Shown here: piece by piece, positions 9,867 through 54,000 of the stretch | Layout of the letters: each line of letters opens with the position of its first letter | Numbering within the stretch: the first letter of the stretch is position 1 | Assembly: GCA_965140345.1 (NCBI GenBank) | Contig: OZ223197.1 | Span: 79,481 to 143,480 of the forward strand | Origin: Candidatus Kapaibacterium sp. | GTDB taxonomy: Bacteria > Bacteroidota > Ignavibacteria > Kapaibacteriales > UBA2268 | DNA: 64,000 nt | Reading direction: 5' to 3' | Program-made: the position numbers and the translations under genes | Notes under the pieces: generated by a model | What the model saw: the letters and a program-made list of their open reading frames with translations, nothing else | Told to the model about the DNA's origin: nothing | Database searches by the model: none

Positions 9867-9870
9867 AACA

Positions 9871-14078: not shown

Positions 14079-14096
14079 TACCAATAAATTGCCTAT

Positions 14097-15479: not shown

Positions 15480-15501
15480 AAATATAGATGATTTGCTATT
15501 T

Positions 15502-17042: not shown

Positions 17043-17055
17043 CATCGGTATATAA

Positions 17056-18993: not shown

Positions 18994-19041
18994 AAATAAT
19001 CAAAATCTTATATTATATAATTGTATAATATTAGTATTGAG

Positions 19042-19075
19042 TACCCTTATGTTGTAACAATGTAAGGGTATTTTC
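19042..19075 (+). terminator. Probable rho-independent terminator after ABC-F gene
   Basis: TACCCTTATg...TAAGGGTA stem followed by TTTT. Confidence 0.4.
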
Positions 19076-19201
19076 GTAGATAAGACAGACTATGTAATAT
19101 GAAAAATAATATTGCTTTGACGTAATATAAAAAATACATTTTCGATTCTTGCTCTCAAAGCATTTAAATCTGTAAATTGCGACTATGATATTTATACAAA
19201 C

Positions 19202-20701: not shown

Positions 20702-20753
20702 AAGCTATTTAAAAAAAATATAGATTTTATTATATAAATTAAGGTCAGCGTAC

Positions 20754-35900: not shown

Positions 35901-38900
35901 TATGCCATTGGGAGTACTTGCCGGAAAAGCTGAATTCCTTGATTATATTGATGGAGGAAATTGGGATTTTGCTGATAACTCTGTACCTGAAAATGATATA
36001 ATATTTTTTGGAGGCACTTTTTGTAAACATCCTCTTACAATGGCTGCGTGCAATGCAGTATTGAAAAAAATAGAAAAAGAAGGGGACGAGCTATATAACA
36101 GACTAAATAGTATGACTGCTGATTTTGCAGATAAAGCGAATAAGTTATTCAAAGAACTACGAGTTCCCTTGACTTGTACTTACTTTGCATCTCAGTTTCG
36201 CATAGATGGTCAAAACGAATACAGCTTACTTTTAAAACCTATTGAGCTCGATATATTCTTCTACTTGATGATATACAAAGGTGTTTATTTCTGGGAAAGA
36301 AAGGTAAACTTCTTCTCCACTGAAACATCTAAAGAAGATGTAGAATACATCCTGAAAGCGATGCGCGAAGCTCTTACGGAAATGATTGATAATGGGTTCT
36401 TTCCTGATGAAACTAGAAAAATATCTCCAATTAAAATAATGGAAGCTTCTACATCTCAAAAGAGAATGTTCCTATTAAGTCAGTATGAAGGTGGAGAAAT
36501 AGCTTATCATATCACACTTCCATTTTTAGTAAAAGGCAAACTAGAAACCAATAAACTTGAAGCAGCTATAAGCAAAATTGTTGATCGCCATGAAATATTA
36601 CGTACTAAATTTTATCTGAAAGATAGTAAGATAATAAGCGAAGTAGTTGATAATTATGATTTTAAATTGACTCATTTTGAAATAGAAGATGATTTACAAA
36701 GTGGAATAAATAAGTTTATTCAAAGCTTTGATTTATCTTCATTACCACTATTTAGATTTGGTTTGGCTAAGATAAATGAAAACGAGCATCTACTTGTTTT
36801 GGATATCCATCATATTATCTTCGATGGTCTTTCTATTGCTGTTCTGATAGATGAATTGTGCAAGTTCTATGTTGGTGAAGAAGTTGACTATCAGCCAGTA
36901 CAATTTAAGAGATTTTTGAATTTAGAAGAAAAGTATTTTGGCAGCAAAGATTTTCAAATCGATAAAGAATATTGGCTTGAAAATCTAAAAGATTTGCCAG
37001 TAGCCGCTGATTTACTTCATGATTTTAGCAGACCACCAAAAACAACATTTGAAGGTGATCAGTTACATTTTCAAATAGATTCTGAATTAACAACTAAGAT
37101 ATTTAAATATTCTAGAGAAAAAGGAATTACTCTAAATACCGTACTTCTAAGTGCTTATGCCTTGATGTTAAATAAACTATCCGGTGCAGAGGATTTTGTT
37201 ATAGGTTGTCCTGCTTCTATTAGATCAATAGATGATGATCTTGATACTGCAATTGGTCTGATGGCTAATACAGTTCCTCACAGAATCAAATTGGATAAAA
37301 TTCAAAAGTTCTCAGAATTTGCTCAAAAGCAAGCTATACAAACAACTGAAAATTATGAGCATTCCATATATCCAATTGAAAAGATTATTGAAGACCTTGC
37401 TCTTGAAAATTATGGCAATAGGCATCCTTTGTTTGATTCTCTTTTCATTTTTGAAGCAGCTGATAGTAGGCTTTTTGATATAGAAGGACTTAGCTTTGAA
37501 AGATATAAATATCAGAAACAAACAACAATGTCCGATCTGGTATTTGAAGCTATAAAAGAGTCCGGTGTTATAAATTGTAGTATTGAATATGATAAGAATC
37601 TATTTGAAAAAGCTACGATTCAGAGATTTATAGTTTATTATAATAATATTCTTTCTCAGATAATATCTGATAACGATGTTTCAATTCAAGATGTTAACAT
37701 AATTCCTGAAAAAGAATATCAAATACTAAAATCCGGATTGATGGATTATAATCATGAGGCAAAACTAGAATCAGCTTTAGATATATTTACAAAAAATGTA
37801 GCTAATAATCCTTATAAAAAAGCTGTAATTACCTCTGATAAAACTATTCTTTATAAAGATTTAGATAAATTATCTAATTCCATTGCTTATCATATTCAAA
37901 ATAATATCAACAGAACAGATGCAAAAGTTGCATTGCTCTTGGATAGAAATGAATACTTAATAGCAGCTATTCTTGCATGCTATAAACTTGGAGTTCCTTA
38001 TATTCCATTAGATAAAAGTACTCCTCAAGAACGCAATGAGTACATTTTGCAAGACTCTATGGCTGATTTGCTTATCACCGAAGATGATATGAAAATATCC
38101 ATTCCACAACTTCATTTGAGTGGAATTGATTTTTCTGAAGATCACATTGTAGAGTATAATTCTGATTTAAATTCTCTAGCGTATATCACTTATACTTCAG
38201 GTTCTACAGGAAAGCCCAAAGGTGTAATTATCCGACAAGAGAATATAGTTGCGTTTGTAGATAACTTTGATAAAGTCTTTAATTTCCAGAGAGATGAAAA
38301 AATTCTTGCAGTTACAACTGTCTCTTTTGACATCTCGAATCTTGAAATTATCTGCTCTCTACTTTACGGAATGACAGTTGTTCTCGCTTCTGACGCTGAA
38401 ATCAATAATCTAAATCTGCTCAAGGAATTATGTCACATAAACCATATTGAGAATATTCAGTTAACTCCCAGCCGCTGCAATCTTTTATATCAGGAACTAG
38501 GCAAACCATTCTTAACAAGCTTTAAAACAATTCTTGTTGGTGGTGAAGCAATGCCTAAATCACTGTATAATGAACTTAAACACTTCAAAAATACCAGAGT
38601 CATAAACGTTTACGGGCCAACAGAAACTACTATTTGGTCGAGCTCTAAGCTGATTAATGATAGTGAATTGAATATCGGTAGAGCCTTAGTCGGAGAGAAA
38701 ATCTTTATATTGGATCAAGAGAATAATCCTGTACCAATCGGCGTCAAAGGTGATATATGTATAGCAGGAACAGGAGTAGGAAATGGTTATTATAATCGCA
38801 AAGATCTTACAAAAGATAGATTTATAAAAGCTGATTTTATTGATGATATAATCTATAAAACAGGTGATATAGGAAGGATCAATAATAACCTTGAAGTGGA

Positions 38901-41900
38901 GATTTTTGGCAGAAACGATAACCAGATAAAAATCAGAGGTTATAGGGTAGAACTTGAAGAAATTGAAAATATAGCAAATTCGATTAGTGGTGTGCAAAGT
39001 GCAGTTTGTAAACTTGAGAATGACTCTACATTAGCAATGTTTTATATAGGGATTATAACAGAGCAGGAGCTTAAAAAAGAGCTTAGAGATAAGCTACCTG
39101 CATATATGCTACCAGCATATTTTACCAAAGTTGAGAATTTTCCACAAACTCCAAATGGAAAAATAAATCGCAAAGCATTAAAGTCAGAAATAAAGAATGA
39201 AAAGATAGAGTATTTAGATAAGCAATTGAATAATAAAGAATCTAAGTTTATTGAAATACTGAAAGAAGTTTTAGGTTTGGATTCAAAAATATCTCTCGAT
39301 TCAGATTATTTTGAGATAGGTGGAGATTCTATAAAGTCTATAAAACTAATCTCAGCTTTGTATAAAGAAGTAATAGAAGTAGATTTTAAAACTCTTTTCA
39401 CAGCTGACAGTATAGCTGAAATCATTCAAAAGGCTACATTTAAAGATAATATTAAAGATGATAATGAAATAGAAATATCTGATATGCTTGACTTGCTACC
39501 AATGCAGGAAGGTATGCTCTTTGAATCATTAGGTAAAGATAAATCTATATATCACGAGCAGCTATCATTCAGTCTTCAAGGGGATTTAGATTTCAAGAGA
39601 TATAAAAATGCCTGGAATAAAGTTTTAGGTCATTTTGATATTTTCAAATCAACTCTGCAAACAGATGAGAATTATAAATATAAACGCAAAATAAATAATC
39701 ATATGACAGGCAAGGGATTTATCTCTGAAAATAGTGATTTCGAAGTACTTAAACGCAATGATTTAGAGAATAACTTTTCTATTGAGAATGGCGAACTATA
39801 TAGATTGTATTTAAATAAACGCAATGATATCACTGATGTTATATTCAGTTATCATCACCTGATTTTAGACGGCTGGTCTTTGACAATTCTTTTTGATCTG
39901 ATACGGAAATTATATAAGAATCCAGAGTATGATATCTCTGAGATTCCTGATACATATTCTCAAATATCTCAAAAGATAATTAAAAATAACGCTAGTGTGT
40001 CTATTCAGGACGCCACACAATCTTTACTTGGATTAGAGAATTTAAAAGAAACTAAACTCTGTATTCAATCAAATGACATGTTAGAAAATATAGAATCTGT
40101 TTCGACTACTCTAAATGTAGTAACTCTAGATAAGTTAAAAGATTATGCTACTAAGCAGAAAGTGAGTTTGCAAAGTATTTTACTGGGAGCTTGGACAAAG
40201 CAACTAAGCATGCAAAATCAGTCAGATACAGCATGCTTTGCTTTAAGTATTTCAGGAAGGAATTACTCATATCCTGATATTGATAAAGCAGTCGGTTTGT
40301 TGATGAATACATTACCTATGAAAATAAATACTGATAATAATATCAATACAAGTATAAAAGAAGTACATGCAAAACTAGCTTCAGTATTGGATTATCAGCA
40401 TATTTCTTTAGCGGAGATTATTGCTAACTTTGATAACAAAAATATATATGATCATATAATTGTGATCGAAAATTACCAACCTACTGATTTATCAGTTTCA
40501 GATACAGTAAAAGTAGAAAATATTGATTTTTATGAGAATACAGATACTCCTGCAGTAGTTTATTTCTCAATAGAAGATGGTATTATTATACGTATAAATT
40601 CTAAAACTGCTGATAAAGCAAGTTTAGAAGCATTTTTAGAATCTTATAAATCTCAACTGCTTGCTATCACAGGAGATAATAAGGACAAAGGATTACCTGA
40701 AAAAGATATATCTAAACAAGTTATCTCATTATTTGAAAAAATACTAGAAGTAAAAAATCTTAGTTTAAACAGCGATTTCTTTGACTTTGGCGGACACAGC
40801 CTTAAGATTATAAGACTTCTGACAGCTATGTACAAAGAATTTAATTTTAAGATGGAAGTGGAAGAACTTTATAAAAATCCTACTCCATTAAAAATCGCAA
40901 GTTTAATAGAGAAAGCTTCAAATACAGATTTATCAGTTACTCAAGAGATATATCCATTACCTCCTAAAGAAAAGTATGATTTATCTTATGCTCAAAGGCG
41001 ATTATGGCTCTTTGCAGAACGTTTTCCTGAAAATACATCTTATAATGTTTTTGGTAATTTAATTTTTGAAGGTGATTTGGATATAAATGCTTTTGAAAAA
41101 ACTATTAGAACAATCCTTGAGATAAATCCGATTTTTCGAATAGCTATCGATAATGAAGGAGGTATGCCTTCTCAAAGAATTATGGCAAATGATTTTGTGT
41201 TAAAGGTAAACGAATTTGAGAATAAAAAAGAAATAGAAGAGTATGTAGAATCTTTTTCTAGAACAGAGATGCAGCTTAATAAAGGCAATCTATTTAGAAT
41301 AGAGCTGATTAAGTTGAATCATAGTAAATATATTTTCCTTTTTAATGCTCATCATATAATTTTTGACGGTTGGTCAAATGATCTGTTACTGAAACAAATA
41401 CAAACAATATACAGAGATATAGTAAAAGGACAAGCAATTGATATTCAAACTGGCTCTATAAACTACTTTGATTATGCTCACTGGCACAATCAAGGCGTTA
41501 TGAACGGAAAATTTCATAGCCAGAAATTGTATTGGCAGAATCAACTGCAAGATATACAGGAAATATCTATTTTAAAAGGAGATCTTTCTACCGAAATAAA
41601 TATTCCTGCTCTCAGCATATACAAAGAGCTAAAACTCAATGAACTTATAATATCAAGAAGATATTCTAAATTTACCATTCTTACTGCTGCAGTTACTATG
41701 CTTATCTCAGCTTATGAAAATAGAGATAAGATTATACTTGGAATCCCTGTATCAGGCAGAACCCCACAAATAGAATTATCCTCATTAATGGGGTATTTTA
41801 TCAATACTTTACCACTGGTTGTGGATATAAATAAAGAATCCGGAGTGGAAGATTATTTGGAAGAAATTACTGAGAAAATCAGCAACATAAATTCTAATCA

Positions 41901-42303
41901 ATTATATCCTCTCGAATTGCTTGATGAGCTAAACCAGAATGATGATATGGCATTAAACAAGCTATTTAATGTTATAGTTAACAGTTTTGATAGCAATCTT
42001 GATAATTTAAAACTAGATAATATCAGAATAACTGAATATCCTGTAAAAGCAAATCAGAGTAAATACGACTTGCAATTCTACTTTGAAGAGAAAGAAGAAG
42101 TAAAACTCCTAATTGAATATAGTTCAAAGATATACAGCTCTAAGTTTATAGATAAATTGACTCAAAAACTTGAAACAATACTAAATATGATGCAGGTCTC
42201 TCAGATTAAAATAAAGGATATTTTAAATTCAATATCTGAGCAAGCTTTATATAAACGAGATGACTTTTTAAGAGACATAGACAATATTGACGAGGAATTT
42301 TAA
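29992..42303 (+). CDS. Hybrid fatty-acyl-AMP ligase / PKS / aminotransferase / NRPS megasynthase (iturin/mycosubtilin MycA-like): AL-ACP-KS-AT-ACP-AMT-C-A-PCP-C-PCP-C
   Basis: Approximate nt ranges: AL 29992-31600 (FSSGSTGSPKGV, YGLAEATLAV); ACP ~31640-31840; KS 31860-33130 (DTACSSSL, EAHGTGT, NIGHTEAAAG); AT 33430-34350 (GHSTGEYAA); ACP ~34560-34780 (GMDSLTL); class-III aminotransferase 35150-36420 (GSEAIMVAIRVARA, PLP-Lys TYGKVIGGGMP); C 36440-37720 (HHIIFDGLS); A 37750-39180 (YTSGSTGKPKGV, NVYGPTETT, YKTGD, IRGYRVELEEIE); PCP ~39300 (GGDSIKSI); C 39470-40690 (HHLILDGWS); PCP ~40790 (GGHSLKII); C 40950-42303 (HHIIFDGWS). Uninterrupted 4103-aa ORF. Confidence 0.95.
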   Translation: MKNLIELLANIRNSSKGITFYTSTGTSEFYSYQYLYLSSQSRLQHFNQNNIDSSFQAVFQISSDKNFIESLWACILGGITVVPLPLADSKESEQKLRNILDLLDNPIILSDSDAIIEDYDAIDVSETFVESEIELEFKSQNPLLIQFSSGSTGSPKGVIVSHENLISNLESMRTTLEFRKDEVFLSWAPLTHSSGMILAHLNAVRGDYNQIQIERQAFISNPLNWIYLTDKHKATFIFAPNFGYKYFLSALDKKVNYEWDLSSVRYIMNGSEQISAEIANEFTYTLSKYRLNSKAMTTIYGLAEATLAVSCESIYEELQYLNVNRNSINLGGSIEVSKDDKNSLKLVSQGKAVANTQIRIFDEEVLSDNMVGEIQVRSDSVISSYYKNPTATESLLTPDSWLKTGDLGFLRDGKLYVCGRQKELIIINGINYYPDDIERQLASLIDISQNHIIVSSKINETSGTEEIVCGVASERDLDVESIKKNFIAKYGIVISHIRKIESIPTTSNGKKQRIKFAKDFIIEHDKTDNNISINNLDLWQIRDVIIKVAEKFVESNFDSNKNFALQGFNSIKTVEFVSDLSKILNINLDAFVVFNNPDVQSLSNYISSKMSYLEAKKDISEDQNYEDIAIIGIDCRFPKAKNADEFYRNLISHIDCISEIPKSRWDVSKIADSKIKEIPNYGGFLSDFDLFDNEFFNILPIEAKSLDPQQRLLLETTIHALEDANIKIEDIRNSDCGVYVGIANSDYAAVEAKSSELQKITPYSFTGYTPSTAAGRISYFLGLHGPNLAIDTACSSSLAALHYASRGIQNKECKLAIVSGVNLILSPEMNIGLYEMGVLSEDGRCKTFDKKANGYVRSEGCATLIIKSLKQAEEDGDRVYGVVKASALSHDGASNGLTAPNGVAQVKVMQKSLGIAKLHAKDINYFEAHGTGTVVGDLQELNSISELCGKIEPHQKVGAVKSNIGHTEAAAGLAGVIKILKAYEKGTLPGNLHFNHLPENSHVDISDSNIVSKNIDIFELLSEANSDKLRASINSFGYSGTNVNLILEQYPNANIKTKVTHSSNAIRVLPLTAKTSESLDKTMQAYSELLNKEAIHIDDLIANLELFRDKYKHRAAIVSTNSNIIDILSDPTSSKIKYKVLKSSSITESKGIVFTYPGGGAQRLKMGQELIQKDSVFADNMLKCDKLLSNYLNTSIIDIINNNKEKLGKLEFAQPALFAIEYSLSQMFVSYGLTPQAVIGHSTGEYAAACIAGIISLEDAVKMISVRAKLMDSIDTKGKMVAVYTNSETVGKYLTDYQKYVSIATINSSENVVISGSSEKVDEIVQKIKADGIEFKELKISQASHSPIMEEIIDPYREAIKYIEFKEAKIDYYNNITGKKLEKGTILDAEYWCNHILECVNFAASLQNIREDGFHIFLELGPSPVLTGVGLQDYPDDLFISAFAKDFDEYEQIQRVLGELYVNGIDLSFSKIYKIEQFNKIELPKYQFSQKRFYQDPNHGLYKQNNQIYQTVTSIPEQVKMKTSRNYKNEILEIIADKTGLEKEQLDINTGFFQMGMDSLTLVKMRQEINKKYAISVSMTDLVKNYDTVSKLSEFVSSNMPEEPEVIENSTYEPVQPLQNHQQTSSNQNVSYVESIIQQQMQIMQQQLNLLQNSAQVISEPVQQKKVKKQSKPTNFRSLKLDGDNLSVEQEKFINDLIEKYNHKTKSSMEYAQKHRKHLCDWINTLSFRFSLKKMSYPFVSSRSEGGYVWDLDGNKYIDIANGYGVHFFGHRPKFVEEAILQQIDKGFELGPQSAIVGETAELLARLSKNERVTFCNTGSEAIMVAIRVARAKTGRDEIVIFGGSYHGTFDGVLAVPDDDGDSRPVSIGVPEGMVENVKVLDYGSDEALEYIKIKSQNIAAVICEPVQSRKPHLQPKEFIKELREITQNSGTTLIFDEVVNGFRISAGGAQEFYGIKADLVTYGKVIGGGMPLGVLAGKAEFLDYIDGGNWDFADNSVPENDIIFFGGTFCKHPLTMAACNAVLKKIEKEGDELYNRLNSMTADFADKANKLFKELRVPLTCTYFASQFRIDGQNEYSLLLKPIELDIFFYLMIYKGVYFWERKVNFFSTETSKEDVEYILKAMREALTEMIDNGFFPDETRKISPIKIMEASTSQKRMFLLSQYEGGEIAYHITLPFLVKGKLETNKLEAAISKIVDRHEILRTKFYLKDSKIISEVVDNYDFKLTHFEIEDDLQSGINKFIQSFDLSSLPLFRFGLAKINENEHLLVLDIHHIIFDGLSIAVLIDELCKFYVGEEVDYQPVQFKRFLNLEEKYFGSKDFQIDKEYWLENLKDLPVAADLLHDFSRPPKTTFEGDQLHFQIDSELTTKIFKYSREKGITLNTVLLSAYALMLNKLSGAEDFVIGCPASIRSIDDDLDTAIGLMANTVPHRIKLDKIQKFSEFAQKQAIQTTENYEHSIYPIEKIIEDLALENYGNRHPLFDSLFIFEAADSRLFDIEGLSFERYKYQKQTTMSDLVFEAIKESGVINCSIEYDKNLFEKATIQRFIVYYNNILSQIISDNDVSIQDVNIIPEKEYQILKSGLMDYNHEAKLESALDIFTKNVANNPYKKAVITSDKTILYKDLDKLSNSIAYHIQNNINRTDAKVALLLDRNEYLIAAILACYKLGVPYIPLDKSTPQERNEYILQDSMADLLITEDDMKISIPQLHLSGIDFSEDHIVEYNSDLNSLAYITYTSGSTGKPKGVIIRQENIVAFVDNFDKVFNFQRDEKILAVTTVSFDISNLEIICSLLYGMTVVLASDAEINNLNLLKELCHINHIENIQLTPSRCNLLYQELGKPFLTSFKTILVGGEAMPKSLYNELKHFKNTRVINVYGPTETTIWSSSKLINDSELNIGRALVGEKIFILDQENNPVPIGVKGDICIAGTGVGNGYYNRKDLTKDRFIKADFIDDIIYKTGDIGRINNNLEVEIFGRNDNQIKIRGYRVELEEIENIANSISGVQSAVCKLENDSTLAMFYIGIITEQELKKELRDKLPAYMLPAYFTKVENFPQTPNGKINRKALKSEIKNEKIEYLDKQLNNKESKFIEILKEVLGLDSKISLDSDYFEIGGDSIKSIKLISALYKEVIEVDFKTLFTADSIAEIIQKATFKDNIKDDNEIEISDMLDLLPMQEGMLFESLGKDKSIYHEQLSFSLQGDLDFKRYKNAWNKVLGHFDIFKSTLQTDENYKYKRKINNHMTGKGFISENSDFEVLKRNDLENNFSIENGELYRLYLNKRNDITDVIFSYHHLILDGWSLTILFDLIRKLYKNPEYDISEIPDTYSQISQKIIKNNASVSIQDATQSLLGLENLKETKLCIQSNDMLENIESVSTTLNVVTLDKLKDYATKQKVSLQSILLGAWTKQLSMQNQSDTACFALSISGRNYSYPDIDKAVGLLMNTLPMKINTDNNINTSIKEVHAKLASVLDYQHISLAEIIANFDNKNIYDHIIVIENYQPTDLSVSDTVKVENIDFYENTDTPAVVYFSIEDGIIIRINSKTADKASLEAFLESYKSQLLAITGDNKDKGLPEKDISKQVISLFEKILEVKNLSLNSDFFDFGGHSLKIIRLLTAMYKEFNFKMEVEELYKNPTPLKIASLIEKASNTDLSVTQEIYPLPPKEKYDLSYAQRRLWLFAERFPENTSYNVFGNLIFEGDLDINAFEKTIRTILEINPIFRIAIDNEGGMPSQRIMANDFVLKVNEFENKKEIEEYVESFSRTEMQLNKGNLFRIELIKLNHSKYIFLFNAHHIIFDGWSNDLLLKQIQTIYRDIVKGQAIDIQTGSINYFDYAHWHNQGVMNGKFHSQKLYWQNQLQDIQEISILKGDLSTEINIPALSIYKELKLNELIISRRYSKFTILTAAVTMLISAYENRDKIILGIPVSGRTPQIELSSLMGYFINTLPLVVDINKESGVEDYLEEITEKISNINSNQLYPLELLDELNQNDDMALNKLFNVIVNSFDSNLDNLKLDNIRITEYPVKANQSKYDLQFYFEEKEEVKLLIEYSSKIYSSKFIDKLTQKLETILNMMQVSQIKIKDILNSISEQALYKRDDFLRDIDNIDEEF

Positions 42304-44158
42304 AATGTGCGGAATTGCTGGAATATTTGACCCTAAAACAAAAAGCTCTTTTAATACTAAAACTTTAAAGAGAATGGCTGATAAGATAGTACATCGTGGA
42401 CCGGATGATGATGGCTATTTTGTGGATAGTATGTGCGGACTTGCATTCAGAAGACTTTCAATTGTAGATTTATCCACAGCTGGTAATCAGCCGTTTTATA
42501 ACGAAGAAAAGTCAATTGTATCAGTTACAAATGGCGAAATTTACAACTATCCTGAACTTAGGAAAGATCTTTTGGCTAAAGGACACAAATTAAATTCTAA
42601 CTGTGATACTGAGATAATAAATCATCTTTATGAAGAGTATGGAGATACTTTTGTAGAAAAGCTTGACGGTCAGTTTGCAGTAGCACTTTATGATAAAAAC
42701 CTGCAATCCTTGCTTCTTGCCAGAGATTTTGTGGGAGTAGCACCTTTGTTTTGGACTAAGCATAATGGTGTTATATATTTTGCTTCAGAGATAAAAGCGA
42801 TATTAGCTAATCAAGATATAACACGAGAGATTGACCTGACTTCTCTGGATTCTATGTTTACATTTCCATCAATTGTTTCGCCAAGAACGATGTTCAAAGG
42901 TATTCACTCATTAAAGCCGGGACATATTCTAAAAATCCATTCTGATGAAGCTAAAGAATTGAAATATTACGATTTAGACTATCCACAGGAAATAGATTTA
43001 GATTCAGAAAAATCTGTTGATGAGCATATAGAAAATATTGATTTTCTACTTGGAAAAGCTGTTAAAAAAAGATTGCAGGCAGATGTTCCTGTGGGCTGTT
43101 ATATAAGTGGTGGACTCGATTCTTCTATAATATCATCTCTCACTCGTAAAGAATTGTCAAATAGAGACCTAAATTCATATTCTATTCTTTTCGATGATAA
43201 CAAAATAGATGAAAGAAAATATCAAAGAATGATGTCTCAGCAGATTGCTTCCAATCACAATGAAATAGAATTCGATTGGCAGAGCATTAGCAATTATCTG
43301 CAAAAAGCTGTGTACCATGCGGAAACACCTCTTAAAGAAACATATAATACCTGTTCACTGGCACTTTCTGAAAAAGTGAATGATTCAGGATTAAAAGTGA
43401 TTCTAACAGGTGAAGGAGCTGATGAGATTTTTGCAGGCTATGTAGGCTATAGATTGGATTTGGAACGTGAGCCTGAAGAATTAGAACCTGAAATAATCGA
43501 AGATCAGGCTATTAGAGAAGATTTGTGGGGAGATTCGCAATTTATATACGAAAGAAGCTTTGTCGAGCTGAATGAGCTTAAAAATGCGATTTATGGAGAT
43601 AATATCGTTTCTTCGCTTAATGATTTTAATGCAGCATTCTCAAAACCTGTAAATAAAGAATATTTGCAGGGTAGACATATAAATCATAAACGCTCTTATT
43701 TAGATTTCAAACTAAGAATTTCTGATCACTTAGTTGCTGATCATGGCGACAGAGTAACTTTTGCTAATTCAATCGAAGGCAGATATCCATTTCTTGATAA
43801 AGATCTCTTAGATTACACAAGAAAGATACATCCTAAGTATTTAATAGAAAATGGAATAGAGAAATCAATTCTAAAAAAATATGCTGCTAAGATTGTTCCT
43901 GATGAAATTAGGAATAGAGAAAAGTTTGCATTTGTTGCGCCGGGTAGCCAATATCTGCTTCAGCATAATTATGAGTTTGTATCAGATTATCTTTCCTATG
44001 ACAGTATAAAAAGTGCAGGATATTTTAATCCTGCCACCATAGAAAGACTCAAAAAAATGTATTTAAGGCCGGATTTTTCGATAAATCAAACATTTGAAAA
44101 CGACATTCTGATGATAGTTTTGACTTTTAATATCTTATTAGAACAGTACAAAATATAA
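42287..44158 (+). CDS. Asparagine synthetase (glutamine-hydrolysing) family amidotransferase (AsnB-like)
   Basis: N-terminal Ntn Cys MCGIAGIF (class-II GATase), PP-loop SGGLDSS, 623 aa; start overlaps megasynthase stop; embedded between NRPS genes. Confidence 0.85.
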   Translation: MTRNFKMCGIAGIFDPKTKSSFNTKTLKRMADKIVHRGPDDDGYFVDSMCGLAFRRLSIVDLSTAGNQPFYNEEKSIVSVTNGEIYNYPELRKDLLAKGHKLNSNCDTEIINHLYEEYGDTFVEKLDGQFAVALYDKNLQSLLLARDFVGVAPLFWTKHNGVIYFASEIKAILANQDITREIDLTSLDSMFTFPSIVSPRTMFKGIHSLKPGHILKIHSDEAKELKYYDLDYPQEIDLDSEKSVDEHIENIDFLLGKAVKKRLQADVPVGCYISGGLDSSIISSLTRKELSNRDLNSYSILFDDNKIDERKYQRMMSQQIASNHNEIEFDWQSISNYLQKAVYHAETPLKETYNTCSLALSEKVNDSGLKVILTGEGADEIFAGYVGYRLDLEREPEELEPEIIEDQAIREDLWGDSQFIYERSFVELNELKNAIYGDNIVSSLNDFNAAFSKPVNKEYLQGRHINHKRSYLDFKLRISDHLVADHGDRVTFANSIEGRYPFLDKDLLDYTRKIHPKYLIENGIEKSILKKYAAKIVPDEIRNREKFAFVAPGSQYLLQHNYEFVSDYLSYDSIKSAGYFNPATIERLKKMYLRPDFSINQTFENDILMIVLTFNILLEQYKI

Positions 44159-44168
44159 GGGGAAAAGT

Positions 44169-45020
44169 ATGAAGGTGATTATATACTCTCTAATAATATC
44201 AATGTTTTACATAGTCGTTTTAAAAGCAGATGATAATAAAGAATCTCATCCTAATGATTCACAATGGTGGCTAAAAAGCCCGATGGATAATCCTGAATTA
44301 TATAATCAGACTCTTTACCATGTGGAAGGATCATATTCTTTTACAAATATGACAGGTAATATTGAAGGTAGTGTTCATAAAGGTACTCTCTTGAACTTTC
44401 TACGCTATAATGACTTTACATTTCATTTTAATATGATGGTTGATAAGTATAGAATAACTACATATTATGACAATTCAGGAAAGATTGAGTCTGAGAAAAC
44501 TGTTACTTCAGATCATCAAATAGCTGAGTTTGCTGTCGACTTTAACCTCTCTAAATATTTTAACATCGAAGGTGGAGTTATTTGGGAAAAAGATCAAAAA
44601 CAATCTGTGCTTGACAGATGGTCTTATTATGCAGGTCTTGGATTTAATCATCACTTTGATAATCACTATCTCGATTTTATTGTAGCAGGAGGCATGGTTG
44701 ATATAGACTATGATATACCTTCCTATATTCTAAATCTATTTGATGTTCAAAAAGAACCTGATGCTTATTTGTTCTTAATACAGAGTTACTCCTGGGCTAT
44801 CACAAAGGGAGTAATGTTTAAAGAAAAATTTCAATTTTTCCCAAATCTGTCTGAAACTAAAAGATATAGATATGGTCTTGATGTTTCAATGATCTTTAAT
44901 GTTTGGAAATCCTTGTCTGTTATGGTAGAACATATTAGAAATTATGACAACGATGCTAAAAATATTGAAGCGTACAGCACTGACACAAAAACTCTTATCG
45001 GTATCCAACTGCAATATTAG
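44169..45020 (+). CDS. Probable outer-membrane beta-barrel protein (DUF481-like) embedded in the BGC
   Basis: Signal peptide MKVIIYSLIISMFYIVVLKA; alternating aromatic/hydrophilic strands; C-terminal ...TLIGIQLQY. Confidence 0.5.
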   Translation: MKVIIYSLIISMFYIVVLKADDNKESHPNDSQWWLKSPMDNPELYNQTLYHVEGSYSFTNMTGNIEGSVHKGTLLNFLRYNDFTFHFNMMVDKYRITTYYDNSGKIESEKTVTSDHQIAEFAVDFNLSKYFNIEGGVIWEKDQKQSVLDRWSYYAGLGFNHHFDNHYLDFIVAGGMVDIDYDIPSYILNLFDVQKEPDAYLFLIQSYSWAITKGVMFKEKFQFFPNLSETKRYRYGLDVSMIFNVWKSLSVMVEHIRNYDNDAKNIEAYSTDTKTLIGIQLQY

Positions 45021-45035: not shown

Positions 45036-48000
45036 ATGAACAAGAAAATATATTACACGGTTTTTGACTCTATAGCAAAGCAATATCCGAATAATATTGC
45101 TATTGAAGAACAAAACAGAACAATTACTTACCGGGAATTAAAAGAAAAGTCTGATCAAATAGCGGCACATATATTAAACCTGAATATTGGGCTATCCAAA
45201 GTAATAGCTATATCTATTTCTGAATCTATAGAATATGTTGCAACAGCTCTTGGTGTTATGAAGTCAGGCAATATTTTTATGCCATTGGATTTAAAACATC
45301 CGCATGAACGATTGAATAGAATTATAAAGAAAACTTCACCGGAGCTTTTAATATATAATGAAGTATCAGTAGTTAATAGATTGATACATAAGAGTATTAG
45401 CTATGATGCATTGCTCATGGATGTTGTTAATAATACCTTGCCTGAAATGTCAGGTGAAGAACCGTGTTATATCATTTCTACATCCGGTTCTACCGGAGAA
45501 CCTAAGTCAATATTAGGAATGCACAAAAGCTTTTCCCATTTTATGCACTGGGAAAGTAAAGAGTTTGAAATAAGCGAAAATGATAGAGTACCTCTGATAG
45601 CTCCTACTACTTTCGATGTGAGCTTCAGAGATATATTTGTTCCGCTTATGAATGGGGCGACTTTAGTTATTCCTCCAATTGATATTAAAAAAGATATAAA
45701 AGAATTATGTAAGTGGTTGGAAGAAAAGAATATTACATTGCTTCATATAGTGCCTTCTATCTTTAGAATGATTACTAAGATTGCAGAAAAAGATCAACAA
45801 TATAAGTTCAATAATCTTAAGCATGTTTTACTTGCAGGCGAACCTCTTTACGGAAGAGATGTTCAAGCATGGAGGAATGTATTTGGATCTAATACAGAGC
45901 TGATTAATCTATACGGCCCTTCTGAAACTACCCTGGCAAAAATTTTCAACAGACTTGGTGAGAAGCAATTTGAAGACAATAGAATTATCCCACTTGGGCA
46001 ACCAATAAGTAACACAGCAGTTCTAATTTTAAATAGAGGCAAACTTTGCGATATAGGTGAGCAAGGTGAAATTTACATAAAAACACCATTCCGTTCTTTG
46101 GGATATATAGGAGATACAAAGTTAAATGGTGAGGTGTTTGTACAAAATCCTTTAAAAGAGGAAGCAGATATAGTTTATAAAACAGGTGATATGGGTAGAT
46201 ATTTACCGGATCACTCTATCGAATTTATTGGTAGAATCGACAGGCAGATTAAAATCTCAGGAAATAGAGTTGAGTTAAATGAAATCGAATCCGCTTTTAA
46301 AGATTTTGAAGCTATTGATGATGTTATAATTATTCCTCAGAAAGATTCTGATAAAAATATTCGTCTATGTGCTTATTACACAGCAAAACATGAAATTAAT
46401 CAGTCTGAATTGAGATCTTTTTTAAGCGAAAAATTGACTGATTATATGATGCCGTCTTATTTTGTTGAGATGAAGGAATTTCCTCTTAACTTCAATGGCA
46501 AGATAGACAAAAAGGCACTTCCAAAACCTGAAGATATGCTTTATGAGAAAATTAAGTTTGTAGAAGCTGATTCAGAAATTCAAAAGACTTTAGTTCAAAT
46601 ATGGCGAGAAATATTCGAAATATCCAGAATTGGAATAAATAATAAATTTACTGATTTTGGTGGCAATTCTATGCTTGCCATAAAACTAATTGCAAAAATA
46701 TATCAAACATTCGGTAAATCAATCAGTATAAAAGAGCTTTTTGAAGATGGTTCAATAAAATCAATATCCGATACAATTTCTATTGATAATATCACTGAAA
46801 TTTCTATTGCAAAAGCTGTAAAGAAGGAAATGTACAAATTGTCATTCCAACAAGAACGACTTTGGATTTTATCACAAATTGAAGAAGCAAATGCTTCGTA
46901 TAACATTGCTTCAGCTTATAGTGTAAAAGGAAGCTTTGATGTTGGATTATTTGAAAAAGCTATAAATTTGGTGCTGAATAGACATGATGTGTTCAGAACT
47001 TCATTTCATGCTCTAAATGGGCAGCCTTTTGCAAAGATTCAGGATTTCGTAGATTTTCAAATTGATGTAGAAGTTTCACAACATCGTAATTTAGAGCAAA
47101 CGTTATCTAAAGAATCAGCAATCCAGTTCGATTTGACTCAAGCACCTCTTTGCAAGTGTAAAGTCTTTCAATTGTCTGAGGAAGAGAGAATTCTTTTCTT
47201 TAATATACATCATATCGTTGCTGATGGGAATTCATTACGTTTACTTGTAAAAGAAATAAATGATGTATATAAGCAATTGAAAAACAATAGTATTACAGAG
47301 TTTATCGATGATAGATTAAATTATGTAGATTACGCTGAATGGCAACAAGAATATTTGAAATCAGAAGAAGCAAAAGAATTCCACAACTTCTTTAGAGATA
47401 AGTTAAATGGTGAGTTGCCAATATTGACTCTACCTACCGAGTATGCCAGAACTAATTCCAAGTCTTATAATGGAAGTAGAATTAATTTAGCACTGGATTT
47501 TGAAACTACACAAGCATTAGATAGCATTTCGAACGATCTGTCTGTATCTAAGTTTACTGTGTTTGTGGCTGCAATGAACTTAATATTTAGAAAGCTTGCT
47601 GGCACAAATGATATAATTACAGGGACAGTAGCAAAAAACCGTTCATTGTCGCAATTAGAGAATATGCAGGGGTATTTCTCTAATACTCTGCCACTTAGAG
47701 TTAAAATTGACCGAGAAAAGCCTGCAAATGAATTCATCAGTCAAGTAAAAAAAGAGATATTATCAACACTTGATAAACAAATCTATCCATTTGATAAAAT
47801 CATTTCTGAATTAGATCTTGTTAGAGATTTTTCCAGAAATCCTGTGTTTGATGTGATGCTAATGTACCGAGAGAATGTGCAGGAAGATTTAAATATTCAG
47901 GGTGCTGAAATTCAAGAAATAGAAATTCCTGAAAGTCTAAGCAGAATTGAACTTGCATTTGAACTCATAGAAGCAGGTGATGATTATAAACTGGAAATAT

Positions 48001-51000
48001 CTTACAATTCTGATCTTTACTCAGAAGAACAGGTAAGAGAATATCAAAAATATTTTTCTGAAATACTAAAACAAATTTCAGTAAATAATACTAAAAGAGT
48101 TAAAGATATTTCGCTTCTATCTCAGCAAGAAACCTTAGAGTTGATTTCTAATTCTTATAGAAAATCTGAATATTCTTATCAGCAAAATATTTATAGTTTG
48201 TTCGCAGATACAGCTACTAAATATTCAGATTATAATTCTTTAAGTAACGAAGATTCTACAATAACATACTCAGAACTAGTTTCAGATGTAAATAAGATAG
48301 CAGAGTTTTTTGTTCAAGATGGCATCAAAGAAGGTGATATTGTAGCAGTTAAATCAGGTAGAACAGGAAAGCGTGTGGCTATTGTTCTAGCTCTATGGAA
48401 AATCGGAGCTGCATATCTACCGATTATAGATTCACTTCCTCAGGAAAGGATAAATTTTATATTAGCTGATTCAGGAGCTAGGTATTATGAAGAAAATTCT
48501 ATCACAGTGCCTTCTAAAAGCTCAATAGAAATAGCAATATCAGACAAAATGTTAAATCCTGCTTATGTGATCTATACTTCGGGTACGACCGGCAAGCCAA
48601 AGGGTGTAAAGGTTTCACATGCAAGCTTCCTAAATCAACTTCTGCACCAGAAAGAAGAACTGAAAATTGATGAAAAATCTGCAGTTTTGCAATTCCACGA
48701 ACATTCATTTGATGGTGCGATGGTTGAGCAGTTTCTTCCTATGATTGCAGGTGCTAAATCAGTAATAGCTACAAAAGAAATTATTGAAGATATAAGCAAC
48801 ATATACAGCTTATGTGAAAAAGAGCAAGTTACTCATGCCATTTTCCCGCCTTCGTACTTAAGCTTATTAGATATTTCCAAGCTTAATTCTTTGAAAATGA
48901 TTGCTACTGCCGGCGATGTGCCTAATATAAAAACTATCCAGGCTGTTCTTGATGCAGGAATTGAATATTATAATCTTTATGGACCAACTGAAACTTCATG
49001 CACTACTTCGATACAAAAAGTCGATCATATTGAACCTGAAATACCTTTGGGTAAACCTGTTTATAATACTTATATGTTTATAGTAGATGAGGATATGCAG
49101 GTACTTCCGCAGAGAGCTATGGGCGAAATATGTATTTCAGGAGCAGCACTAAGTCTTGGTTATATCAATAATTCTAATGACGATTCTTTTACTAAGTTAT
49201 CTTCATTAAATAATATATCTGTTTATAAAACAGGCGACGTAGCTAAAGTTGATAAAAACGGCAATTTGGTTTATATCGGAAGGAAAGATAATAGGATTAA
49301 GATACGTGGTTATAGATTAGATCCACAGGAAATAAGACAAGAAATATTGAAAGAAAATTCAGTGGTAGATGTAGAAGTAATAGCTCATAAACAGCAGCTT
49401 AAGGCTTTTGTGAAGTCTTCCAATACTTTGGATACTAATGAACTCAAAAGTCATCTGGCAACTATTCTTCCAAATTATGCTATTCCTGAGATATATTTTG
49501 TAGATACTATACCTAAAAATGCAAATAACAAAACAGACTTTGATGCATTACTTAAGCTATCTGATTTTTACGATTATCAATCAATCGAAGATGAGCTAAG
49601 TGATTTTCAGTCAGAAGTTAGGCTTGTTTTAAAAGAAGTTTTGCCGATAGAAAATATAAGACTAGACGATAACTTCTTTAAGCTAGGCGGTCATAGTCTA
49701 CTGGCGATAAGCTTAATAAGTAAAATAAATGAGAAGTTTACCAGCGATGTTAAGATAAAAGATTTCTTTAAGAATCCGACATTGAGACATTTAGCAAGCA
49801 TTATCGAAGAGGCATCTGAAAAGAATATTGTAAAACTTAAAAAAGCTCCTGTTCAAGAATCTTTTGAATTAAGTTCTCAGCAAAAAAGGATATATTCAGT
49901 TGCAAAAATGGGTGGGGATCAGGCATATAATGCACCTATTGCTATTCGATTTGAGAATTTGGACATAGAACTTTTTTCTAGAGCTTTAAACAATGTGATT
50001 CAAAAACATCCAATGCTTCGTGCTAGGATCCAAGAACATAATGGTGAACCTTGCTTATTTATCAGGGAGCATTTTGAGTATACTCCTGAAGTATTCCTTG
50101 TATCTAATGTAAACAACAAAGCTATAACTGAGAAATTGGTGGACAAACTTTCTACTGATTATCTCAATATTTCAGATTATCCTCTTTTCAAAATCTCATT
50201 CATAAAAGATGAGTTCCAAAATTCAGTTATGATCTTGAATATTCATCACGTAATAGCTGATGGTATTTCTTTAAATATCTTTGTAAAAGATTTAACAAAA
50301 GAGTATAACCATTTGAAAAGCAATGTAGTAACAGTTGAAAGAAAAGAAAATTATATTTATTTAGATTATATTTATAATCAACAATATGAAGTTGAATTAG
50401 AGAGAAACAAGACAGCTAGGGAATACTGGAAAAACAAATTACAAGGTGAACTCACCGTATTGGATTTGCCTACTAAAACTGTTAGGTCACAAGTACAGAC
50501 TTACAACGGATTGGTAGTCCATTCAACTATTGATAAGAGAAATCTAAATAAACTGAATAGAATTGCAGGTGAGTTAGGTGTTTCAAAATTCTCCATGGCG
50601 GTGGCGTTAGTAAAAATCCTTTTAAGGAGATATACGGGGCAAAATGATATTATATTGGGCACAGCTGTTTCCGGTAGAGAATATAAAGAATATGAAGATA
50701 TTATAGGGCTTTTCTCAAATATTATTCCATTAAGGGATAATATTGAAAAATCAGATACGCTTGTGAACATAATTGAAAAAGTAAGCAAGACAATTAATGA
50801 AAGCTTTGAGTATCAAGCGTATCCATTTGAAAAAATGATTGAAGACTTAGCTCTAGAAAGAGACATGAGCCGAGGTGCAATTTTCGATTTTGCAATGACT
50901 TATGGTTATAAAGATGAAGCACAATTTGAGTTTGACGGAGTTAAAGCTGAGTATCTTCAAAATAAAGGCTATTACAGTAAATTTGATATATTATTCTCTT

Positions 51001-54000
51001 TCATTGAAAGTGATAATAAGCTTGATCTTGAATTGACTTATAATACAGATTTATATGAAGACAAGTTTATTGCCTCTATTTCAGGCCATCTAGAACAAAT
51101 AATAGAAGAGATCACAATCTCAATCAATCAGCCTGTAGATTCTATCAATATTCTGACTCAAAATGAATTGGATCAATTACTAAAATTCAATAAGACAGAG
51201 TATAAATACTCGGATAATTCCTCAATTACGGACTATGTAGATCAGATAGCAGAAAAATATCCTGAAAATACAGCTCTTACTCTAAAAGACAAAAGTATAA
51301 GCTATAAAGAATTGAAAAAACGATCTGATGTGATAGCTGCTAATATATTGAAAAATAATGACATTAGGATTGGTGATAATGTCGCAGTCTTTACTAAAAG
51401 AGATATTGATTTTGTACCGATAATGCTTGGCGTTATGAAAACAGGGGCTATATATGTTCCGATAGATGAAGAAACTCCTCTAATTAGATTGAAAAAAATC
51501 CTCAATAATTGCTCTGCAAAGATGTTGATAACTGATAAAATAATTGATGTCGATGTTCAGGTCGTAGATAAAAACAATCTTATAAACACTGATATATCTA
51601 TGATTCAACTAGCTAAACTTGAGTCCAAAACTCCTGCATATATAATTTACTCATCAGGAACAACAGGTGAGCCAAAAGGAATTGTTGCTACTCATTCCAA
51701 CTTGATCAACACAATAGAAGATCAGATTCATGCTTTTGAGATAGATACAAATTCTAAAGTGATGCAATTTTACTCAACTGCTTTTGATGCTTCTATGTTG
51801 GAAGTATATTTGGCTCTTTTTGCCGGTGCTGAACTTGTGGTAACCCCAAAAGAAATTATATCAGACAAAACAATGATAGAAAGCTATTTGCAAGAAAAAC
51901 AAGTTAGTTTTGCATTTTTCCCTCCTTCATATCTAAAGATATTGGATAAAGAAAAACTTGCTAATGTTAAGACCATAGTTACCGGAATGGAACCGCCGAT
52001 ATTAGAAGACGCTTCCTATTTTGCGGAAAAAGGAAATTATTTCAATATTTATGGCCCTACAGAAACAACTGTAATTTGCTCTTATCACAAAGTTGATCCT
52101 AGAGAGAATAATAATTCGGCTATTCCTATCGGTAAACCGATGCGAAATTATTCTATGTATATCATGAATGATGAACTTCAAATTCAGCCGATTGGATTTC
52201 CGGGAGAAATCTGCATAGAAGGTGAGGGGCTGGCTTTGGGATATCTTAACGATAAAGATTTAACTGACTCTAAGTTTAAAATCAATCCATTGACAGGCCA
52301 CAGGATCTTCTGTTCAGGTGATATTGGTAAAATGCTACCAAACGGCGATATAGTTTATCTGTCTCGTAAAGACAAACAGGTCAAAATAAGAGGATATAGA
52401 ATTGAGACCGGAGAAATTAAAGCTAATATTGACAAAATAGATGGAATAAGAGAATCTTATATTAATGTTATTGATGAAAATGGCAATAAAGAGTTAGCTG
52501 CTTATGCTATTTCTAATAGCTTGAAAGAGTCTGAAATCAGACAGAGACTAAAATCTATGCTTCCTCAGTACATGATTCCGAAATATATTAAGCTAATAGA
52601 TGTTATGCCTCTTACTCTAAACGGCAAGATTGATAAGAATGCGTTGCCAACTGATTTCTCAGATGAAATAGATAACAAACATGAGAATCAGGAACTTAAC
52701 GAAAAAGAGAGTATGGTACTTGAAATTTGGAAAAATGTTTTGGCAAAAGAAGTTATAGGAATAAACCGCAATTTTTTTGAACTGGGTGGTGATTCTATAA
52801 AAGCTATACAGATTTGCTCTCTATTAGCACAAAAAGGCTATTTAGCGAATGTTAGAGACGTTTTTTCACATAATACCATCAAAGATTTAGCTAGTGTTCT
52901 AAAAGCTAAGGAAACTCGAATTGAGCAGGATCTCGAACCCGGCATATATCCTCTCAGCCCTATTCAAAAATGGTTTATAGATCAAAACCATGGGATAGTG
53001 GATCATTTCAATCAGGCACAATGCTATGAATTTACTTCAAAAATCGATTCCGCTAAATTTAAAGAAGCTATTGATTTTGTAATGAAAAGGCATTCTGCCT
53101 TTAGAACAAAGTATATTAAAACTGAGAATGGGTACGCTCAAGAATTAATGGAATCGCCAACAGAATATAAATATTTTGAAGTGCTTGAACAGAAGTTTGA
53201 CAAAGACAACATACTGTCAATCTCAGAAGAGATGAATAAATCTATGAATCCTCAAAAAGGAGAGATGATTAAATTCAAGATTATCAGAGAAGAAAATGTT
53301 GATTATCTAATCATTGTAGCACATCACTTTATTATAGATGGTGTTTCATGGAGAATCCTAACACAAGAGCTAGAGACTGCTTATAAGGCTTTAGAATCCG
53401 GTTCCAAAATTTCCCTTCCGGAAGAATCAGATAGTTTTCAAATATGGACGCAAAATATTGAATCTGTGTTCAGTAGTAAAAAGCCTAATATTGAATACTG
53501 GAATAAATTTGAAACAAACGAATATATAGTTGAATTTCAACAAAAAGAAACGAAATTTTATACAGCTTCATTTGAATTGGATCAAGAATATACTCGCAAA
53601 TTATTAGAAGATTGCAACAAGGCATTTAGTACAGAGATAAACGATGTTTTACTAACAGCAGTTAATATCGGATTTGCTGATATGTTCCCTAAACATAATC
53701 ATATTGATATAATGCTTGAAAGTCATGGTCGAGAACATGATTTTAAAAATATAAATATATCCGACACAATTGGTTGGTTTACAACATTTTATCCTGTCTC
53801 TTTTTCGGTAAAATCTAATCTCAAAGAAAGCATTGTCGAAGTTAAAGATAAGCTGAGATCTGTTCCGAATAAAGGATTTGATTTTATTGCTCTAAAGTAT
53901 ATATCAAATGAGCTTAAGCATATTAAAGAACCTAAAATTACATTCAATTACTTAGGTATATTTAATGAAGTAGGAGAGTCTAGTCTGTTGAAAATAAAAG

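Follow-up and report, generated by a model that had tools for sequence, protein, structure and literature searches.

An AsnB-family amidotransferase gene and a DUF481 barrel gene at a condensation/adenylation junction: a conserved AsnB and Asp-type module cassette that probably yields isoasparagine

In a 64,000-nucleotide stretch of DNA from Candidatus Kapaibacterium sp. (GenBank assembly GCA_965140345.1, contig OZ223197.1, positions 79,481 to 143,480; hereafter the window), a predicted lipopeptide cluster raises the question of why two genes, one for an asparagine synthetase (AsnB)-like enzyme and one for an outer-membrane barrel of the DUF481 family, lie between the last condensation (C) domain of one nonribosomal peptide synthetase (NRPS) gene, N1, and the adenylation-thiolation (A-T) didomain that opens the next, N2. 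A sequence-only reading of the same DNA had described this arrangement, and the open reading frames (ORFs) and domain maps agree with it. That reading also described the two genes as wedged between a C domain and its cognate A domain, but their position is no accident, as AsnB and A-T form a conserved cassette in many phyla. The two genes are best regarded as independent additions to the cluster, namely a cassette of AsnB and an Asp module, which by analogy with characterised systems probably yields isoasparagine, and an outer-membrane member of an export or tolerance set. On balance, and with moderate confidence, we propose that the AsnB-like enzyme is the dedicated partner of the N2 A-T didomain and amidates the Asp loaded there, most likely to isoasparagine, and that the DUF481 protein is a separate export or tolerance element.

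The genes N1, asnB, DUF481 and N2 lie on the forward strand with spacers of 1, 10 and 15 nt and were read as one operon. A consensus scan found no intergenic terminator among the four genes, and promoter-like sites occurred at chance level. The start of asnB was placed at the ATG at 42305, one base past the N1 stop codon, where the product begins Met-Cys-Gly-Ile-Ala-Gly; the TTG at 42287 was rejected as a merely mechanical ORF start. The same gene order is retained in relatives with 99%, 88%, and about 54% AsnB identity. An exact database look-up of the window AsnB and DUF481 proteins returned no record, and close relatives were reached via homology search.

Loci of AsnB homologues were collected with their flanks from representative genomes, JGI metagenomes, protein-database contigs, and plasmids; the genome and metagenome counts are those among the matches listed. 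Every locus was mapped for C, A, and T domains and for A-domain specificity codes, and a pairing was counted when an A domain with the code pattern D-x-R-[H/T]-x-[A/S]-[L/F/M]-[L/M/I]-x-K (DxRH) lay within 10 kb. The pairing was found in 28 of the 35 lineages with an AsnB homologue of at least 40% identity, spread over about 10 phyla, and the gene immediately downstream of asnB mostly opened with the partner A domain. The lineages surveyed comprised the window family, a second family at 54% identity, Chitinophaga varians, Flavihumibacter, Desulfamplus, Desulfatitalea, Methylomonas/Methylococcales, Pyrinomonadaceae and other Acidobacteriota, Thermoanaerobaculia, Verrucomicrobiota, Lentisphaerota, Omnitrophota, Paenibacillus tyrfis and other Bacillota, Streptomyces, Kitasatospora, and Embleya. 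One of the 28 paired loci shows a partial A domain, ending in FDASLRD, and in three of the seven exceptions the contig ends within about 1.8 kb downstream of asnB. Among the matches listed, about 125 loci with homologues at 31 to 39% identity showed no DxRH A domain and no adjoining C domain; many of them carry a free-standing acyl-ligase-like gene instead.

In a neighbor-joining tree, the NRPS-linked AsnB proteins fell together in a single clade with 35 members; the outgroup sample, also of 35, contained no NRPS-linked sequence. The 27 full-length DxRH A domains likewise formed an exclusive clade among the 135 A domains from these loci, in a tree that did not include the Zmn16 and FclI sequences discussed below. 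Distances between AsnB proteins correlated with those between their partner A domains in a mirror-tree comparison (r = 0.79; Mantel 0/5000), compared with 0.46 for the other A domains of the loci. Clade structure, co-occurrence, and co-divergence are direct observations on these loci, as are the gene and domain anatomy and the catalytic motifs. AsnB and an A-T didomain that opens its own polypeptide form a conserved cassette across many phyla. The window asnB lies between a C and an A domain because asnB and A-T(-C) are passed on as a single cassette in which the A domain opens a polypeptide of its own, and the C/A junction, ahead of an A-T-C unit, is the normal place of an NRPS-linked asnB. 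We found no earlier description of the pairing in the open-access literature, although one may exist elsewhere; the pairing is widespread and apparently undescribed so far.

The cassette varies in its additional members. Several clusters carry two or three DxRH modules in tandem (L085, L089, and L090). In Chitinophaga varians (L085, JABAIA010000004.1, 10001-21878), a luciferase-like monooxygenase gene comes next after asnB, ahead of three one-module A-T-C proteins with the codes DVRHLALLAK and DVRHFALLA-, from which a run of three beta-Asx residues is predicted. The DARH-type A domains of L090 (11867-16021 and 16994-21154) each hold an insertion of about 290 residues between the core and the C-terminal subdomain, which has no Pfam match. 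Genes for Asp/Glu-family racemases lie within the cassette in three lineages, Desulfatitalea (L086), Streptomyces sp. NBC_01216 (L175), and Kitasatospora (L177). The Desulfatitalea locus (L086/L087, 1-13778) contains an NRPS ending in two C domains and then asnB, DUF481, and the racemase, which scored 104 bits with TIGR00035 (cut-off 93); no acceptor for the last of these C domains appears in the 10-kb flank. In Kitasatospora, the order is asnB, racemase, A-T. The Streptomyces cassette is a compact plasmid-borne operon (15001-21693) in which asnB and A(DARTASLMTK)-T are followed by the gene of a C-domain protein that opens with a WbuX-like PP-loop domain and then by that of a racemase, which reached 188.7 bits with the cysteate-racemase model (cut-off 190) and 127.6 bits with TIGR00035.

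Specificity codes were extracted against GrsA (the control returned DAWTIAAICK) and then hand-checked. The sequence-only reading had proposed that the A-domain codes would separate Asp or Glu from Asn or Gln. None of the six window A domains carries a canonical code for any of these four residues, but one, DVRHLALLAK of N2-A1, is of Asp type and follows directly after the two genes. As for the others, N1-A1 and N3-A1 share DILQLGVIWK (Gly), N2-A2 (DGVIAALCTK) has no assignment, N2-A3 (DALFVGIVIK) is hydrophobic and is followed by an epimerization (E) domain, and N3-A2 (DASTIAAICK) reads as Tyr. The further suggestion that the enzyme supplies Asn or Gln residues abundant in an iturin-like peptide is therefore unsupported.

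The DVRHLALLAK code is identical at 9 of 10 positions to that of Zmn16-A1 in zeamine synthetase, DPRHLALLAK, which a predictor called as 2-aminoadipate (PMC3547906). Nuclear magnetic resonance and mass spectrometry of prezeamine showed that the residue from Zmn16-A1 is a "gamma-aspartate," linked via the side-chain carboxyl, its alpha-carboxylate remaining free (PMC5811116). A second near-identical code, DPRHVSLLAK of FclI-A1, is tabulated as Asp, and fabclavine Ia has the sequence Asp-Phe-Asn-Asn-Thr-Val (PMC12283262, supplement Table S15); the main text of that paper labels DPRHVSLLAK "Asn-activating," contradicting its own Table S15 (Asp(12), FclI). Module 1 of both Zmn16 and FclI installs Asp. 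The zeamine cluster has no asparagine synthetase gene (PMC3547906), and the free carboxylate is retained. Zeamine and fabclavine clusters lack an AsnB homologue and have the C-N hydrolase Zmn15 in its place, whereas the window has asnB; in addition, the Asp module is the starter in those two systems but internal in the window. Compared by code alone, N2-A1 appears to be of the type borne by domains that install side-chain-linked Asp. Predictors miscall this D-x-R-H lineage, Zmn16-A1 as 2-aminoadipate and Xlt-A1 as serine. The microcystin domains McyE and McyB2, which incorporate iso-linked D-Glu and D-methylaspartate, presumably have D-x-R-H codes as well, although we did not find this confirmed in open-access papers.

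The AsnB-like protein matched the Pfam families Asn_synthase (PF00733, 233.8 bits, cut-off 21) and GATase_7 (137 bits) and cleared TIGR01536 with 468.6 bits (cut-off 267.1). The nucleophile Cys C2 directly follows the initiator Met and is invariant across 21 homologues. The glutamine-site residues R50, N76, E78, and D101 (R49, N74, E76, and D98 in E. coli) and the PP-loop S268-G-G-L-D-S273 aligned and are also invariant, and in the NRPS-linked clade conservation is strict for both the N-terminal nucleophile (Ntn) Cys and the complete glutamine site. Judged by these profiles and motifs, the enzyme is a glutamine-dependent amidotransferase of AsnB type with its catalytic sites intact, as had been read from the Ntn-Cys and PP-loop before, and conversion of Asp, Gln, and ATP to Asn would be predicted from family membership. 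However, the Asp-binding segment of E. coli AsnB (ETYDVTTIRAS; Thr/Thr/Arg) is not matched, and the window protein has ETPLKETY--NTCS there. The residues E345, Y347, and N348 are clade specific and aligned to the E. coli "TTIR," and most outgroup sequences have Arg at position 345; the alignment is gapped here, and the equivalence is approximate. The clade's own residues in the synthetase half would fit an altered acceptor without identifying it.

The closest solved relatives are E. coli AsnB (1ct9, 182 bits) and the hydroxyamidotransferase TsnB9 (7ylz, 164 bits), which share the two-domain architecture, Ntn-Cys, and PP-loop with the window enzyme. The score to E. coli AsnB is modest, and together with the replaced "TTIR" segment, the model for E. 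coli-type housekeeping AsnB separates the two proteins: NF006949 gave 340.4 bits against a cut-off of 499, with mainly the N-terminal domain aligned. The XrtA/PEP-CTERM amidotransferase model (TIGR03108, 386.6 bits, cut-off 816.9) and the NAGGN amidotransferase model (TIGR03104, 354.2 bits, cut-off 570.1) were also not reached, and NCBIfam holds no model specific to the NRPS-linked clade or to the outgroup.

Because the same A-domain pocket occurs with and without asnB, and the free carboxylate is kept where asnB is missing, the A domain would load Asp in both cases and the AsnB-like enzyme would amidate it. In the proposed sequence of events, the N2 A domain would load Asp onto its T domain, the AsnB-like enzyme would draw ammonia from glutamine at its Ntn-Cys domain, and the PP-loop domain would adenylate the Asp carboxylate left out of the thioester. 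The adenylated carboxylate would then become a carboxamide, and a negative charge would be removed. Side-chain linkage, as in prezeamine, would give isoasparagine in the peptide and alpha linkage would give asparagine, an isobaric pair. The alpha-carboxylate is favoured over the side chain because the characterised domains with this code install side-chain-linked Asp. The earlier proposal of Asp or Glu side-chain amidation is thus retained in part: amidation of an Asp carboxylate is favoured, but the alpha-carboxylate of a side-chain-linked Asp is the likelier target. Since a single asnB serves up to three modules per cluster, the enzyme would act in trans. The substrate, the target carboxylate, and the timing of amidation (on the free amino acid, the T-bound residue, or the finished peptide) are what we infer here, as is the role of the barrel.

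A precedent for this order of reactions comes from the cell wall of L. lactis, where RacD makes D-Asp, AslA attaches it via the beta-carboxyl, and AsnH then amidates the alpha-carboxyl (PMC4155827). In the same field, AsnB1 amidates meso-diaminopimelic acid (mDAP), and asnB1 adjoins murE (PMC4155827). A broader form of our proposal, which we regard as possible but hold more tentatively, is that of a mobile cross-phylum cassette of asnB and A(Asp, side-chain-activating)-T(-C), sometimes with an Asp racemase. AsnB would act in trans on the carrier-bound or nascent beta-aspartyl residue to give (D/L-)isoasparagine, with one enzyme for one to three tandem modules, and in the window the same A domain might also load the A-less C-T module of N1.

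Several points weigh against these proposals. The link from code to substrate leans on two characterised domains compared by code alone, and the side-chain linkage is not readable from sequence and is therefore proposed by analogy; the chemistry assigned to all AsnB-linked clusters likewise comes from sequence and analogy. The mirror-tree signal is partly shared species phylogeny. One member of the clade (L092) adjoins an A domain with the canonical Asn code DLTKVGEVCK, three loci (L016, L020, and L091) have no DxRH domain in the visible flank, and the Desulfatitalea locus has no DxRH A-T within 10 kb. In addition, TIGR01536 is an "equivalog" model that is comfortably passed, and a plain asparagine synthetase is compatible with this result.

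The last point leads to precursor supply, in which an ordinary asparagine synthetase would raise the free Asn pool and the DxRH A domain would activate Asn or be unrelated. Such a supply could matter where the host makes Asn on tRNA only. The TIGR01536 score and the complete catalytic motifs would suit this enzyme, as would the Asn code beside the AsnB homologue at L092 and the term "Asn-activating" in the main text of PMC12283262. However, no window A domain has an Asn code, the table in PMC12283262 gives the FclI code as Asp, and prezeamine has Asp at that position. Asn supply would give the gene no reason to stand immediately in front of one A-domain lineage, or to diverge together with it, in about 10 phyla. 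The neighbouring NRPS clusters show no enrichment of canonical Asn modules, with a single Asn code in the 135 A domains; the segment that aligns to the Asp-binding motif of E. coli AsnB sets the clade apart from its outgroup; and the racemases in the cassettes would be left unexplained. We therefore consider precursor supply rather unlikely. It is improbable that the enzyme amidates the peptide C-terminus or another acid after release, independently of the Asp module. Members of the AsnB family do amidate diverse acids, such as mDAP (AsnB1) and trichostatic acid (TsnB9), and the timing of amidation is not readable from sequence, but the specific association with DxRH A-T across unrelated cluster architectures points to that residue. 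In the window, the N3 thioesterase (TE) beside the Tyr module and the beta-amino starter suggest release as a macrolactam, which would have no free C-terminus.

The amidation of loaded Asp assumes ammonia as the nucleophile. With a different nitrogen nucleophile, either hydroxylamine as for TsnB9 or a hydrazine carrier, the Asp carboxylate would end up as a hydroxamate or hydrazide. The rank of TsnB9 as the second-best solved relative and the luciferase-like monooxygenase gene after asnB in Chitinophaga varians and Streptomyces NBC_01431 are consistent with this, but the similarity to E. coli AsnB is higher, most cassettes lack the monooxygenase, and the window cluster has no N-oxygenase or related gene, so that we regard such chemistry as very improbable. 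Least credible of all is ring closure on the peptide by a lactam former resembling beta-lactam synthetase, carbapenam synthetase (CarA), or a lasso cyclase, the first two of which the sequence-only reading had raised. These enzymes belong to the same superfamily; however, the window protein scored just 32 and 29 bits to beta-lactam synthetase and CarA (1jgt and 1q15), and it stayed below the cut-offs for the lasso cyclase (NF033535, 241.9 versus 525 bits) and the macrolactam cyclase (NF033561, 53.2 versus 300 bits). ATP-only cyclases do not need an intact glutaminase site, whereas this site is complete in the window enzyme and strictly conserved, with the Ntn-Cys, in its clade.

The second gene of the pair encodes a protein that matched DUF481 (PF04338) with 47.2 bits (cut-off 21.1). 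It has a signal-like helix at residues 2-22 ending LKA/DD, and its C-terminus (...GIQLQY) is invariant with an aromatic last residue. An AlphaFold2 model gave a 12-strand barrel with a mean confidence (pLDDT) of 80.4, in agreement with the signal-peptide outer-membrane beta-barrel recognised before. The profile match, signal peptide, barrel, and C-terminal aromatic residue are common to the DUF481/YdiY family. To our knowledge, no member of this family has a known function. A fold search of the PDB with the model returned generic barrels alone (FapF, autotransporter beta-domains, OmpG, COG4313, and KdgM; TM of about 0.45 to 0.5), with no catalytic or specific transporter family. The subfamily is small and divergent, with 188 representatives at E <= 1e-3 among 1.84 billion, and a word-indexed search with its profile yielded no additional homologues.

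All five DUF481 contexts examined are NRPS clusters. In the 54%-identity family, the DUF481 protein is 49% identical, and the frame of N1...Gly-T-C-T-C and A(DVRHLALLAK) is retained. In Desulfatitalea, the AsnB-DUF481 pair recurs with a DUF481 protein of 29% identity (E = 1e-26). Two further NRPS clusters have no AsnB. In one (L173, 6517-12560), DUF481 is flanked by homologues of the ABC (46%), SPFH (43%), and DUF697 (41 to 50%) proteins, and the accessory set there also includes MbtH and a ParA-like ATPase; in the other (L172, 1-2332), the order is DUF697 (55%), trans-AT, DUF481, and NRPS. The window holds the same accessory set of DUF697, ABC exporter, and SPFH proteins at the cluster edges. 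DUF481 and AsnB have separate affiliations: in NRPS clusters that have no AsnB, DUF481 is again accompanied by ABC, SPFH, and DUF697 genes. From this gene context, DUF481 is one of a group of accessory genes that recur in the lipopeptide clusters of diderm bacteria. By association, a role in lipopeptide passage or tolerance at the outer membrane is plausible, and the earlier suggestion of an export or self-protection element fits these neighbours.

The remaining architecture bears on the product into which an Asx residue would be built. The loading region of N1 is of the iturin-like beta-amino-fatty-acid type and is followed by one complete module, an A-less C-T module, and the terminal C domain. 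The cluster is predicted to encode a lipopeptide starting with a beta-amino fatty acid, and the predicted order is beta-amino acyl, Gly, the residue of the A-less module, Asx, X, D-hydrophobic, Gly, and Tyr, with release by the TE. The A-less module, absent from the sequence-only reading, is kept between the Gly module and the terminal C domain in two relatives with 88% and 54% AsnB identity (L002 and L168). In Paenibacillus tyrfis (L011), an analogous T-C-C-T-C end precedes asnB, and the DxRH A-T is free-standing there. Distances between T domains singled out no A domain as the loader of the A-less module. AsnB itself was rejected as the loader of this T domain: the majority of cassettes contain no A-less module, and AsnB keeps a conserved glutaminase site.

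Table 1. Positions of the genes and domains of the cluster in the window
Feature	Position	Strand	Basis or remark
N1, hybrid polyketide synthase-NRPS, 4103 aa, FAAL-ACP-KS-AT-ACP-aminotransferase-C-A(Gly)-T-C-T-C	29992-42303	+	Pfam, hidden Markov model (HMM) domain map, motif map, internal BLAST
N1 A domain, code DILQLGVIWK (Gly)	37750-39195	+	Stachelhaus extraction against GrsA, hand-checked
N1 A-less C-T module, C with HHLILDG, T with FGGHSL	39463-40935	+	Motif and HMM domain maps
N1 terminal C domain (HHIIFDG), aa 3653-4095	40948-42276	+	Acceptor A-T is the start of N2
AsnB-family glutamine-dependent amidotransferase, 617 aa, PP-loop SGGLDS	42305-44158	+	Profiles, motifs, NRPS-associated clade
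DUF481 outer-membrane 12-strand barrel with signal peptide, 283 aa	44169-45020	+	Pfam, AlphaFold2 model
N2 module 1, A-T (aa 1-590), A code DVRHLALLAK	45036-46805	+	Proposed partner of the AsnB-like enzyme
N2 whole, A-T-C-A-T-C-A-T-E, 3078 aa	45036-54272	+	Domain maps
N2 remainder, C-A(DGVIAALCTK)-T-C-A(DALFVGIVIK, hydrophobic)-T-E	46806-54272	+	Domain maps and codes
125-aa ORF between N2 (E end) and N3 (C start)	54282-54659	+	No Pfam or NCBIfam match
N3, C-A(Gly)-T-C-A(DASTIAAICK, Tyr)-T-TE	54670-61368	+	Domain maps and codes
Cyclic-peptide-type ABC exporter	61319-63010	+	TIGR01194, 358 bits, cut-off 286
SPFH/Band 7 protein	63013-63894	+	Pfam; accessory set
DUF697 protein	29403-29891	+	Pfam; accessory set
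Beta-lactamase-fold serine hydrolase, directly upstream of the cluster	28111-29391	+	PF00144, 160 bits

For the serine hydrolase upstream of the cluster, roles in peptide hydrolysis, cyclisation, or resistance are conceivable. An Rfam scan of the window returned no match. Farther from the cluster, the window (32% GC) carries a flagellar operon at 5826-14927 (flgF, flgG, flgA, flgH, flgI, an SLT-domain protein, flgK, flgL, and motA) and, on the reverse strand at 23070-25418, a protein with a type IX secretion system C-terminal sorting domain. This combination suggests an Ignavibacteria-like member of the FCB group more than one of the classical Bacteroidia. At its left end are a superfamily 1 helicase of 900 residues (375-3077) and a leucine-rich-repeat protein of 455 residues with at least eight repeat units (3819-5186, reverse strand).

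If the proposed amidation holds, the presence or absence of an asnB of this clade would tell amide from acid at the DxRH position in orphan clusters of Streptomyces, Paenibacillus, Chitinophaga, Desulfobacterota, Acidobacteriota, and others. The A-T-C exchange unit with its one trans enzyme would then be a portable unit for beta-linked, charge-neutral Asx in NRPS engineering, and cell-wall D-isoasparagine formation would have a mechanistic parallel in secondary metabolism. For the DUF481 family, the cluster would offer a first testable context, as the outer-membrane part of an ABC/SPFH/DUF697/DUF481 set for lipopeptide export or tolerance in diderm producers. Should the mobile-cassette form prove correct, it would add a second, unrelated route to isoasparagine beside the cystobactamid AMDH route and place a first AsnB-family enzyme in NRPS assembly-line logic.

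Among known systems, mycosubtilin and iturin synthetases of the MycA type share the loading logic of fatty-acyl ligase, ACP, KS, aminotransferase, and C-A-T, and their first protein likewise ends in a C domain whose A domain opens the next protein, an architecture reportedly described by Duitman et al. in 1999. Unlike these, the window cluster belongs to a Gram-negative, Ignavibacteria-like host and has an integrated AT, an extra A-less C-T module, and two genes at the C/A junction. Iturins have seven modules rich in Asn, Gln, Pro, Ser, and Tyr, whereas the window has six A domains and one A-less module, with no Asn, Gln, Pro, or Ser modules. The likeness to iturins is confined to the loading logic because the window has no canonical Asn, Gln, Asp, or Glu code. 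For isoasparagine in a nonribosomal peptide, the known parallel is the AMDH domain of CysH in cystobactamid biosynthesis, also a PP-loop ATP-binding enzyme on a carrier-bound residue. However, AMDH sits inside an Asn-specific A domain and isomerises tethered Asn, whereas the window enzyme is a free-standing glutamine amidotransferase for which side-chain-loaded Asp is proposed.

The closest functional model is AsnH of L. lactis, an AsnB-family enzyme that amidates the alpha-carboxylate of a beta-attached Asp; the likeness drawn here is one of proposed function and gene context. The mDAP-amidating enzymes AsnB1, LtsA, and B. subtilis AsnB are related peptidoglycan cases. In peptidoglycan synthesis, asnB1 adjoins murE and asnH works with aslA and racD; the window AsnB clade is likewise encoded directly upstream of its partner A-T didomain in most of the 28 lineages. 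The L. lactis triad of racemase, activating enzyme, and AsnB recurs in the Desulfatitalea, Streptomyces, and Kitasatospora cassettes. Compared with the AsnH system, an NRPS A-T didomain takes the place of the ATP-grasp ligase as activator in these clusters, and the acceptor would be a secondary-metabolite peptide rather than a lipid-linked muropeptide.

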